Shown one piece after another: positions 39,688 through 41,765 of a DNA stretch of 56,645 nucleotides. Position numbers and translations under genes: made by a program. The DNA comes from Parcubacteria group bacterium GW2011_GWA2_40_143 (GTDB lineage Bacteria > Patescibacteriota > Minisyncoccia > UBA9983): positions 1 to 56,645 of the forward strand of contig LBYH01000003.1 in assembly GCA_000996035.1 (NCBI GenBank), given 5' to 3'. Under the pieces are notes generated by a model, which was given only the letters and a program-made list of their open reading frames with translations, was not told the DNA's origin and made no database searches. Each line of letters opens with the position of its first letter. Within the stretch, counting starts at the first letter, position 1.

Positions 39688-41765
39688 GTTATCAGCTCCA
39701 AAAATTCTTTTTCAGTGAGAATTTTTACGCCAAGTTTTTTGGCTTTGTCATGTTTGGATCCCGGATTGTCACCCGCCACCAAAAAGTCTGTTTTTTTGGA
39801 AACCGATTCCGCAGCCTTACCGCCAAGATCGCGAATCATCTCTTTGGCGGCTTCTCTGGATAAGGCTTCCAACGCGCCGGTTATTACGAAAGTTTTGCCG
39901 GAAAGTTTGGATGAGAAAATCTTTTTGGGCGGTTTTACTTTCACTCTTTCAAGAAGTCTTGTCAGTAATTTTTTATTGTTGTTTTCTCTAAACCAATCAT
40001 AAATGCTTTTTGCCACTACCTCGCCAATGTTCTCCACTGATTCAAGCTCATCCAAAGAAGCGTCTTTCAGTTTATCAAACGAACCAAACTTTCTGGCAAG
40101 ATCCACGGCCGTTCTCTCTCCCACGTTTAAAATACCGAGTGCGATTATAAATCTATCAAGTTCTATTTCTTTTTTAGAAGCGATTGATTTCACTATATTT
40201 CCGGCGGATTTCTCGCCAAACCTCTCAAGCGGCTCAAGATCGCCTTCTTTTAAATCAAACAAGTCCGCGGCATCGGCGACAAGACCATTATCCGCAAGCG
40301 CGTCAATTATTTTCGGCCCAAGTCCTTCTATATTGAAAGCTTTCTTGGAAGCAAAGTAATGCAACTGCCTCCTGTTTTTTACGGAACATTCATTGTTTAA
40401 ACATCTTATTATGGGACTGCCTTTTTCTTGCCCAAGTTTGCCGCCGCAAACAGGACATCTATCCGGCATTTTAAATTCTTTTTCCTTGCCGGTTCTAAGC
40501 TCCGGCAAAACCTTTACCACTTCCGGTATCACGTCACCGGCTTTTTGAATTATTACCGTATCGCCTATCTTAAGCCCCAGTCTTTTAATTTCTTCTTCAT
40601 TATGCAGGGTGGCTCGGCTTACCGTAGTGCTGGCGACACTCACCGGCTTAAGCATGGCCACCGGCGTAAGAGCTCCCGTTCTGCCCACTTGCGTAAAAAT
40701 ATTTTCCACTATCGTGGTAACTTGCTCGGCCGGAAATTTAAACGCCACGGCAAACCTTGGCGCCTTGCCGGTATAGCCAAGTCTGTTTTGCCAATCCTTT
40801 TTATTAACCTTGATAACAATGCCGTCTATCCAATAATCTTCTTTCTCTTTTTTGTTCTGCCAATGTTTCCAAAAAGCGATAACTTCGTTTATGTTTTTGC
40901 AAAGTTTATAATTTTTATTTACCTTAAAACCAAGCTCTTTTAACAATTCCAGCTCTTTAATTTGTGTACCGGGAAAAAAGAAGGGGGAATTAGTTTTGGA
41001 CGAATTTCCCTCATTGTCCGTGAGGGAAAAACTGACTCCCCCTTCTTTTTTTTCTAGCGACGCTATGTCATAGATAAAACTGTCCAGTTTTCTGGAAGCG
41101 GCAATTTTCGGATTAAGCTGGCGAATGGAGCCGGCGGCCACATTGCGAGGATTGGCATAGAGCGGCTCGCCTTTCTTTTCTTGAGCCGCGTTGAGCTTCT
41201 CAAACTCTCGTTTGCTTAGCCAAATTTCTCCTTCCGCCACTATATCCACACTTTCCTCCAAACGAAGCGGGATACTCTCAATGGTTTTAACATTTTGCGT
41301 TACATCTTCACCCATTAAGCCGTCTCCTCTGGTAGCCGCCGTTTTCAGAAAACCTTTTTCATAAGTCAAAACTATTTTGAATCCGTCAATTTTAAGCTCG
41401 CAGACATATTCAATGTCAAGGTTGAACCTTGACATTGCGGAAACTTCTTTAGAGAGCATTCTTTTAACTCGCGCGTCAAACTCCATCGCCTCTTCCTCGC
41501 TAAAAACATCTTCAAACGACCATTGCCTTACCGTATGGTTTATTTTTCTGAATTTATCCAAGGGAGCGCCCCCCACTCTCTGTGTCGGCGAGTCCGGAGT
41601 GACATACTCCGGATTATCCCGCTCAAGCTTGTAGAGTTCGTGCTTTAAGGAGTCAAGCGCCGCTTCGGATATCTCTTGCTTGTCTAAAACATGATAAAGA
41701 TATCTGTGGTGATTTATAACCTTTTTCAGTTTTTCTATTCTTGTTTTTACTGAATTAACCGCCAT
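39666..41765 (-). CDS. ligA: NAD-dependent DNA ligase
   Basis: CELKIDG adenylation lysine motif, ATRGDG, Zn finger CPVCGG...C, HhH repeats, and a BRCT end. 699 aa. Confidence 0.95.
41411..41437. repeat. palindrome family B copy inside the ligA coding sequence
   Basis: Identical 27-mer CAATGTCAAGGTTgAACCTTGACATTG, read in frame on the minus strand as [10 protein letters not shown], just upstream of YVCELKIDG. Confidence 0.9.

Follow-up and report, generated by a model that had tools for sequence, protein, structure and literature searches.

A 56,645-nucleotide stretch of contig LBYH01000003.1 (positions 1 to 56,645) from Parcubacteria group bacterium GW2011_GWA2_40_143, referred to as the window, carries ligA, the gene of a 699-aa NAD-dependent DNA ligase, on its minus strand (39666..41765). 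Convergent with it, on the plus strand (39014..39682), lies an open reading frame (ORF) for a 222-aa Y1 (HUH) tyrosine transposase of the RAYT type (REP-associated tyrosine transposase, where REP stands for repetitive extragenic palindrome). A 27-bp palindrome, called the 27-mer below, occurs three times in the window, at 38961, 39661 and 41411. Two of the copies bracket the RAYT gene; the last one, 1.7 kb from the RAYT gene, lies inside ligA and is read in frame as part of the ligase shortly before motif I (KxDG).

The palindrome in the reading frame of ligA

The ligA copy at 41411..41437, within the minus-strand gene, reads CAATGTCAAGGTTGAACCTTGACATTG, i.e. CAATGTCAAGGTT-G-AACCTTGACATTG, a perfect palindrome of 27 nt with arms of 13 nt around one central base (written 13-1-13; other palindromes are denoted in the same way). 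In the coding-strand frame, GC[A ATG TCA AGG TTC AAC CTT GAC ATT G]AA, the outermost codons each combine palindrome and flanking bases, and the palindrome is read as (A)MSRFNLDI(E), corresponding to LigA residues 110–118 (AMSRFNLDI). The sequence YVCELKIDG comes after these residues, with the catalytic lysine, K125 of KIDG, seven residues downstream. The 27-mer found no match in 100 dinucleotide-preserving shuffles, and the window contains eight perfect palindromes whose arms reach 10 nt or more, as compared to ~0.45 in shuffles. The ligA copy is predicted to fold into a hairpin of −12 kcal/mol as DNA (z −6.2) and −16.8 kcal/mol as RNA (z −4.8).

The ligase gene carrying this element is intact. 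Its ORF is free of internal stops, and the protein scores 804 bits against NF005932 and has the complete set of Pfam LigA domains (Ia, adenylation, OB, Zn finger, HhH and BRCT). Residues K125, D127 and G128 are invariant, and motif I is intact despite the insert. Comparison with the orthologue in L009, a locus collinear with the window at ~90% nucleotide identity (L numbers denote loci and P numbers LigA homologues), gave a synonymous divergence dS of 0.24 and a non-synonymous divergence dN of 0.018, with dN/dS = 0.074. Thus, ligA is under strong purifying selection. No second ligA was found within the 56-kb window.

When the protein was aligned with HMMER to the adenylation domains of 1B04, 1TAE and 4LH6, a gap of 10–11 residues opened exactly at the palindrome-encoded residues. 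The closest LigA homologues, one at 96% identity and the next at ~70%, come from metagenome-assembled genomes (MAGs) of Parcubacteria, Terrybacteria and Pacebacteria. Among 120 LigA homologues, the stretch from ..RVKRML to EYxCELKIDG is hypervariable in length, and the clade with the shortest loops (P0026, P0030, P0038, P0046, P0055 and P0057) adjoins the window LigA in a neighbour-joining tree. The DNA of this clade (L046) is palindrome-free at the loop. The excess of the window LigA over the short-loop clade is exactly 9 residues or 27 nt, and deleting the 27 nt equalises the loop length. Relative to palindrome-free relatives and to LigAs of solved structure, these alignments show the 27-mer to be an insertion.

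In an AlphaFold2 model (mean predicted local distance difference test, pLDDT, of 79), residues 108–119 form a loop between a helix (residues 90–107) and a strand (residues 120–126). The predicted loop has pLDDT values of 71–76 and is flanked by blocks with values of 90–91. The insert is confirmed not to be an assembly artefact: it is present in all five full-length members of the 90%-identity LigA cluster and in one of its two fragments, the insert-bearing members stem from independent NCBI, JGI, ENA and Logan assemblies, and the exact protein of the window is found on 15 contigs.

These results largely bear out the original prediction, which was made from the DNA letters alone. It had placed an exact 27-bp palindrome in frame before KxDG at this position, in an ORF that stays open at 699 aa, and both the sequence and the frame are as described. 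Its estimate that the segment before KxDG is about 8 residues longer, which would fit an insertion of about 24–27 nt, becomes exactly 9 residues and 27 nt when measured against the palindrome-free clade, and 10–11 residues against the PDB LigAs; where it expected a surface loop, the model has a loop of lower confidence. The prediction had also named two observations that would refute it. One was that the residues are ancestral and encoded by non-palindromic DNA in relatives; instead, the relatives either lack the residues or have palindromic DNA at this place. The other, an additional intact ligA, was not seen within the window.

The adjacent transposase and the distribution of the repeat

The RAYT ORF matches PF01797 (Y1_Tnp) with an E value of 5.8e-12. 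Its HUH motif NHFHLL (N81 H82 x H84 L85) and the tyrosine motif SYIHLNP (Y142-I-x-x-N146-P147) are invariant in an alignment of nine homologues, and a JGI homologue is annotated as 'REP element-mobilizing transposase RayT'. In Patescibacteria, the family comprises 7534 matches at E ≤1e-10.

On the 3' side, copy 2 of the 27-mer (39661..39687) spans the stop codons of both convergent genes, with RAYT ending in ..LNVKVEP* on the plus strand and ligA in ..TNVKVQP* on the minus strand. The 3' end of the RAYT gene is overlapped by the 27-mer in L007, L015, L036 and L037 as well, and ~44 of the 120 closest RAYT homologues (~37%) terminate in ..VKV[EQK]P or ..VKV. The ..VKV[EQK]P tail results from translating TCAAGGTTNAACCTTGA; hence, the 3' repeat and the transposase stop codon routinely overlap. 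On the upstream side, copy 3 (38957..38991) has arms extended to 17 nt, TCCCCAATGTCAAGGTT c AACCTTGACATTGGGGA. RAYT homologues with 48–59% identity to that of the window adjoin an identical 27-mer in L004, L007, L015, L036 and L037; copies are found on both sides of the gene in the window, L007, L015, L036 and L037, and in L004 one flank is visible. The window encodes three RAYT paralogues in total, which are 37–39% identical and each have their own flanking repeats.

L009 provides a comparison without the transposase gene. Window positions 38988–39660 are missing there, and a single palindrome (L009 2935–2963) lies between ligA and yqeY, as opposed to the palindrome–RAYT–palindrome arrangement at 38957–39687 of the window. 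L009 keeps both ligA palindromes but lacks this RAYT gene. In more distant relatives, yqeY follows ligA directly with no RAYT, and in L044 another gene intervenes. Given the collinear, RAYT-less L009 locus, the RAYT gene was either recently gained at a solo repeat or lost from it. By these associations, the 27-mer, termed family B in the original prediction, is a REP-like repeat tied to a RAYT-type transposase, and the adjacent enzyme explains the repeat family.

Copy 2 also affects the ligase itself: in addition to the internal 9 aa, a second stretch of the protein, the C-terminal tail NVKVQP, is encoded by a palindrome. The LigAs of the window and L009 have a C-terminal extension of 6 aa compared to homologues that end in ..EFLKLLG, and the copy at the 3' end has replaced the native ligA stop codon, adding the tail. 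In P0123 (MDP3902268.1), a LigA with 95% identity, the C-terminus is NVKVEP rather than NVKVQP; therefore, the central base (C/G) of the stop-codon palindrome has flipped between close relatives.

An exact-match scan for the 27-mer, allowing any central base, over species-representative genomes and metagenomes yielded 5 loci in the former and 32 in the latter. The genome loci belong to MAGs labelled Saccharibacteria, Zambryskiibacteriota, Patescibacteria group and 'bacterium', and contigs other than the window carry 1–2 copies per 8–14 kb. Coding overlap was counted for a non-redundant set of 45 copies of the 23-nt core from the retrieved loci: long ORFs run across 17 of them, 8 provide the stop codon of an ORF with 80 aa or more, and 20 lie outside long ORFs, which amounts to ~55% overlapping coding sequence. 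Ten of the spanning ORFs were confirmed by Pfam, namely arginyl-tRNA synthetase (ArgRS), MiaA, RNase H, an ATP-grasp enzyme, a reverse transcriptase (RT), an HMBD membrane protein, a Pyr_redox_2 oxidoreductase, a TSP3-repeat protein and two giant beta-propeller proteins. Nearly all spanning ORFs use the frame MSR[L/F]NLDI, which is the sole stop-free frame in both orientations.

A few further features were seen around the transposase genes and in ligA. A TTGACA hexamer, present on both strands of every 27-mer copy, is contributed by the right arm of copy 3 as a −35-like element and lies 17 nt before a TAAAAT box just 5' of the RAYT ATG; this promoter-like site (38979..39007) fits the sigma-70 consensus at 11 of 12 positions. 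The second paralogue, RAYT2 (ORF 31917..32600, minus strand), is 39% identical to the RAYT beside ligA and is flanked at 31886..31907 and 32609..32630 by direct-orientation repeats TATTGAC(A/G)TTCGATGTCGATAG. RAYT3 (ORF 44936..45685, plus strand) is located between the genes for prepilin peptidase and pilin, has syntenic counterparts among the RAYTs of L044 and L046, and is accompanied by four same-strand copies of GC(A/G)TCGACGTCGGACTTCGACGCA at 44839..44862, 44896..44919, 45515..45538 and 45698..45721, one of which is in frame inside the RAYT3 ORF itself (TASTSDFDA). Within ligA, a second in-frame insert at 40974..41051 (residues ~238–266) forms an imperfect hairpin of ~78 nt with a 15-bp outer stem, AAAAAAGAAGGGGGA/TCCCCCTTCTTTTTT (DNA folding −23.4 kcal/mol, z −5.3). 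This insert occurs as a single copy in the window, has pLDDT values <50 at residues 241–261, is missing from the PDB LigAs and from many relatives (P0016, P0018, P0026, P0027 and P0045), and is expanded in other relatives.

Palindromes at orthologous sites and the symmetry of their arms

To compare the pre-motif-I loop between relatives, the DNA of 12 ligA loci from the clade was used. A palindrome is present at the loop in 11 of the 12, perfect in all but one, with arms ranging from 9 to 28 nt and at least eight distinct sequences. The 13-1-13 palindrome of the window has the same core as the 15-1-15 palindrome of L009. The loops of L038/L039 contain a 23-3-23 palindrome (AGCGACATCAAGGTTTAACCTTG..), that of L047 a 23-1-23 (GCGACATCAAGGAGTCGCCTTGC..), those of L040/L041 a 16-3-16 (GCGGTACTATCGACAT..) and those of L042/L043 a 15-1-15 (ACCCCCCTCGACATC..); L044 has an 11-1-11 palindrome (ACTTGGACATC..), L045 a 20-2-20 (ACTTGGAAGTCCTGCTTCCA..), L049 a 28-2-28, and L050 two tandem GGACATCSGATGTCC units. 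In L048 the palindrome is 9-5-9, and by eye it can also be drawn with ~17-nt arms around a longer loop. Different loop palindromes are carried by closely related LigAs.

Several of these sequences recur elsewhere. The core of the L040 loop palindrome is identical to the repeats flanking RAYT2 of the window. The GGACATCSGATGTCC unit, found in the L042, L044 and L050 loops, occurs twice in intergenic positions of L044, in gatA of L045 and at a second ligA site in L050, where its dimer occupies the position of the ~78-nt insert of the window ligA. Further palindromes of the L045 and L047 types are present in L022/L044 and L048.

A comparable variation is visible at other sites. The GatA linker after the conserved MDSTS holds different families in frame in L044 (14940..14966, SSTSDVDE) and in L045 (8245..8278, GHPMSKRTSDVQ), and gatA of the window is palindrome-free at this linker. 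At the internal site of the RAYT in the pilin cluster, the in-frame copy fits the flanking repeat of each genome, TASTSDFDA in the window and PSSTSDVDE in L044. As orthologous ligA, GatA and RAYT sites carry different palindromes, such sites are either hit repeatedly or rewritten in place. We put forward, tentatively and with considerable doubt, that, in this clade, certain loops of essential proteins (the LigA pre-motif-I loop and the second LigA site, the GatA post-MDSTS linker and the RAYT-internal site) are long-lived nests for palindromic repeats, overwritten by whichever RAYT-linked family is active, kept symmetric and extended into neighbouring codons by hairpin-templated (template-switch) correction. 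If this were true, self-correcting palindromes would be rewriting part of the proteome all the time, and the turnover at orthologous sites would naturally document the way in which RAYTs move REPs or replace them.

The arms of the palindromes diverge in a symmetric manner. Copies of the 27-mer family differ from each other in their extra outer arms, which are perfectly mirrored within each copy, up to 21-1-21; outer arms of up to 8 nt per side were seen in L002, L010, L013, L014, L016, L027, L034 and L037, for example TCGTCAC..GTGACGA and TTTTACTC..GAGTAAAA. The ligA palindromes of L038 and L047 have 5 differences per arm, all of them mirrored, and two substitutions in L009 beside the ligA 27-mer lengthen its arms to 15 nt. 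Elsewhere in ligA, a conserved segment of L009 (998..1042, codons ~47–62) forms a perfect 20-5-20 palindrome at unchanged length. The arms are just 8 nt in the window equivalent (~41580–41626), from which L009 differs by tightly clustered substitutions (RD to SA). Mirrored outer arms that are specific to each copy are not accounted for by simple copying and pasting of a fixed unit. The L009 20-5-20 palindrome and the mirrored arms would be the signature expected of quasipalindrome template switching, which most likely acts on top of insertion and not instead of it.

Further palindromes are present in other parts of the window. The ORF 6418..7416 (minus strand) contains an unrelated perfect 15-1-15 palindrome, AGCAGTTATTCGGAA a TTCCGAATAACTGCT (7192..7222), in frame and close to where its RhuM domain has its N-terminal edge, and a perfect 13-1-13 palindrome, AAGTAAAAACCTT c AAGGTTTTTACTT (18925..18951), lies in a 114-aa ORF that has no Pfam match. 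Three different perfect palindromes, 11-4-11, 13-4-13 and 14-1-14 (the last being TTTGCACCAAGGTT a AACCTTGGTGCAAA), are found in ~100 bp at 30857..30959, after an ORF whose match to the UvrC RNase H domain is confined to its first third; upstream there is a separate ORF with GIY-YIG, RAYT2 adjoins, and these ORFs may represent a split or decaying uvrC.

Other roles and origins of the 27-mer were considered and set aside. A terminator role for the ligA copy was ruled out, as no T-run or U-tract lies 3' of the palindrome and the terminator scan did not flag the site. A search of 38500–42000 against Rfam at a permissive threshold returned no family for the 27-mer and one sub-threshold miRNA-like match on another hairpin. 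A phage origin was rejected on the basis of zero matches of the 27-mer in 2.9 million viral contigs. A single-function site of the parS, dif or operator type was dropped, because the loop palindromes differ between lineages and the 27-mer tracks RAYT genes.

Origin of the ligA palindrome and relation to known systems

The explanation that we regard as probable is that a RAYT-linked, REP-like hairpin went into a permissive loop before motif I as a clean insertion of 9 codons and persists there as a near-neutral passenger. The 27-bp palindrome would be a non-autonomous repeat of the REP/REPIN kind, with the HUH transposase 1.7 kb away as its cognate enzyme. One copy would have entered ligA as a clean 27-nt insertion in the loop that separates the last helix before the nucleotidyltransferase core from the beta-strand bearing motif I, and a second one would have overwritten the native stop codon at the 3' end, giving rise to the NVKVQP tail. 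The insertion may have survived because its length is divisible by three, because the frame used, MSR[F/L]NLDI, is the only one without stops in either orientation, and because the loop, whose length differs from one LigA to another, is predicted to be outside the folded core. By analogy with IS200/IS605 elements and with TnpA_REP of E. coli, RAYT would mobilise the repeat, which presumably would take the form of a single-stranded hairpin while the DNA is replicated. That relatives carry different palindromes at the loop could then reflect repeated insertion, or in-place replacement by the active repeat family of each genome, with arm symmetry maintained or extended by intrastrand template switching. 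The selfish hairpin tolerated in an essential enzyme, as proposed in the original prediction, is supported by the identity with the RAYT-flanking repeats, the restored loop length, the absence of the residues from solved LigAs, the position in a loop of the model and the intact ligA with its low dN/dS.

A number of observations weigh against this explanation. The link between RAYT and the repeat is one of association, as judged from sequence. The best NCBIfam match of RAYT, NF047646 (REP-associated tyrosine transposase), scores 52.1 bits with a cut-off of 80, and phmmer found no relative of RAYT by sequence in the PDB. The 27-mer is devoid of the asymmetric GTAG/CGTC tag of classical REPs, and the 45 core copies display no conserved target, guide or asymmetric flank motif, only symmetric extensions. 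Just three copies are present in the 56-kb window, all within 2.5 kb of RAYT. Since loci were retrieved by the exact 27-mer, the apparent perfect conservation is in part an ascertainment effect. The ligA allele lacking the 27-mer, for which the original prediction had suggested looking, was not found among relatives with at least 95% identity. The next relatives are only ~70% identical and mostly have other palindromes at the loop, and for this reason the ancestral loop state is deduced from one short-loop clade together with distant LigAs.

Alternatively, the palindrome may have arisen and been renewed in place without any transposition, from a quasi-palindrome perfected by intrastrand template switching, its identity with other copies being brought about by gene conversion. 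Such a process is in line with the L009 20-5-20 palindrome in ligA, perfected by the RD-to-SA substitution cluster with no change in length, with outer arms that vary from copy to copy but retain perfect symmetry (up to 21-1-21), with the mirrored differences between L038 and L047 (5 per arm) and with the L009 flanking substitutions that extend the arms of the ligA 27-mer to 15 nt. However, it leaves the arrival of one 27-mer core in ArgRS, MiaA, RNase H and other genes unexplained; the ligA copy matches, at 27 of 27 positions, both the repeat flanking RAYT and copies that other lineages of the candidate phyla radiation (CPR) carry in unrelated genes, and removing the 27-mer restores the exact loop length of the palindrome-free clade. 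We therefore consider an origin entirely in place improbable.

A selected cis-acting site, kept as a dimeric protein-binding site, a portable bidirectional −35 element or an mRNA hairpin, would account for the TTGACA on both strands, for the promoter-like site with its TAAAAT box upstream of RAYT and for the predicted stability of the hairpin, and since nearly all relatives examined have a palindrome at the loop, a hairpin may be under selection there. Yet the palindromes at the loop are unrelated in sequence between lineages, with arms anywhere from 9 to 28 nt, so no single protein-binding motif is conserved at the ligA loop. In addition, a whole clade is palindrome-free, the 27-mer is scattered in frame in unrelated genes and intergenically, and the ligA copy has neither a U-tract after it nor an Rfam match, making a selected site very unlikely. 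The least credible explanation, which we hardly entertain, is an ordinary lineage-specific LigA loop whose symmetry is coincidental or due to faulty assembly: although the pre-motif-I loop varies in length even among palindrome-free LigAs, perfect 13-nt arms and a 27-mer with zero chance matches expected argue otherwise, as does the identical sequence in independent assemblies and beside transposase genes. Insertion of a RAYT-linked repeat thus remains the preferred explanation.

The closest known counterparts are REP/REPIN–RAYT systems (REPtrons), exemplified by the E. coli REPs with TnpA_REP and by the Pseudomonas REPINs. As in these systems, a single-copy Y1/HUH gene is bracketed by short palindromes that are also found elsewhere, several diverged RAYTs per genome (three in the window) each have their own repeat family, and repeats are often located at the 3' ends of convergent genes. 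The length of 27 bp fits as well, but the repeat of the window is perfectly symmetric, whereas a classical REP is a tagged, imperfect palindrome of 20–40 bp. Classical REPs are mainly extragenic, unlike the copies counted here, of which more than half overlap coding sequence. Further differences are that the host belongs to the CPR/Patescibacteria, that RAYT falls below the NF047646 cut-off and that the RAYT gene is present or absent between genomes of ~90% identity. Because the tag is missing, the copies are not mainly extragenic and RAYT scores below the cut-off, we classify the locus as one that works like a REP–RAYT system while being a variant of it. To our knowledge, mobilisation of REPs or REPINs by RAYTs has so far been inferred and never shown directly. 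Among the papers available to the search, none relevant to RAYTs, REPs or in-frame palindromes in the CPR was found.

In-frame palindromes have been described in other bacteria. Di Nocera et al. (2013) found GTAG/CGTC REPs in frame in known genes, notably in DNA replication and repair genes and tRNA synthetases; they name a REP in the gene for DNA ligase of Opitutus terrae, and recB of two Xanthomonas species contains REPs at approximately the same site (PMC3733652). Because intragenic REPs, one of them in a DNA ligase, have already been published, the ligA case is less singular than the original prediction implied. Those REPs represent another repeat super-family in other phyla, whereas here the presumed cognate RAYT adjoins the gene; moreover, one ligA loop holds at least eight different palindromes across 11 of 12 related genes, and same-site recurrence on such a scale is not reported in PMC3733652. 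The Rickettsia palindromic elements (RPEs) of Ogata et al. (2000), termed 'longer palindromic insertions' in PMC3733652, are, as summarized there, in frame in many essential genes without inactivating them, their added peptides being thought to be surface-located. The repeat of the window type is likewise in frame in many functional genes (ligA here, and ArgRS, MiaA, RNase H, ATP-grasp and RT elsewhere), but it is 27 bp long, resides on Patescibacteria contigs and has an adjacent RAYT. RPE-1 is ~100–150 bp in length, and we know of no transposase described as associated with it.

IS200/IS605 insertion sequences such as IS608 and ISDra2 encode Y1_Tnp enzymes with an HUH motif and a catalytic Tyr, which recognise subterminal hairpins on single strands; each element moves as a whole, has a left end distinct from its right end and inserts 3' of a specific tetra- or pentanucleotide. 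The enzyme superfamily PF01797 is common to RAYT, and these elements may serve as a mechanistic model for how RAYT would handle the 27-mer. In contrast to IS200/IS605, both RAYT flanks consist of one palindrome, the 27-mer is solo in ligA and at most other loci, no target motif is visible, and the RAYTs of the window are paralogues with 37–39% identity rather than copies of a whole element. With respect to arm symmetry, the Ripley model of quasipalindrome template switching predicts clustered substitutions that turn imperfect inverted repeats into perfect ones, and this type of mutagenesis has reportedly been studied in E. coli by Lovett and others. It fits the L009 20-5-20 palindrome and the copy-specific symmetric outer arms; however, it is a mutational process and not an element, and leaves the dispersal of one 27-mer core unexplained.

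Beyond the original prediction, the analysis adds the adjacent RAYT, the rewriting of the ligase C-terminus by a second copy, the other palindromes at the loop in relatives, the in-frame core in other genes and a RAYT-less relative. Together, a perfect 27-bp repeat, a RAYT alongside, a RAYT-less sister allele and a coding site with at least eight palindromes make the locus a compact comparative system. Intragenic palindromes affect gene calling, protein-family alignments and structure prediction in CPR lineages, and if the 9-residue loop is translated and harmless, it would mark a permissive site for LigA engineering. The mirrored divergence of the arms suggests an active process that keeps the repeats symmetric. 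CPR genomes are tiny and have little intergenic space, yet they accommodate selfish palindromes in essential genes such as ligA, argS, miaA, rnhA and gatA.

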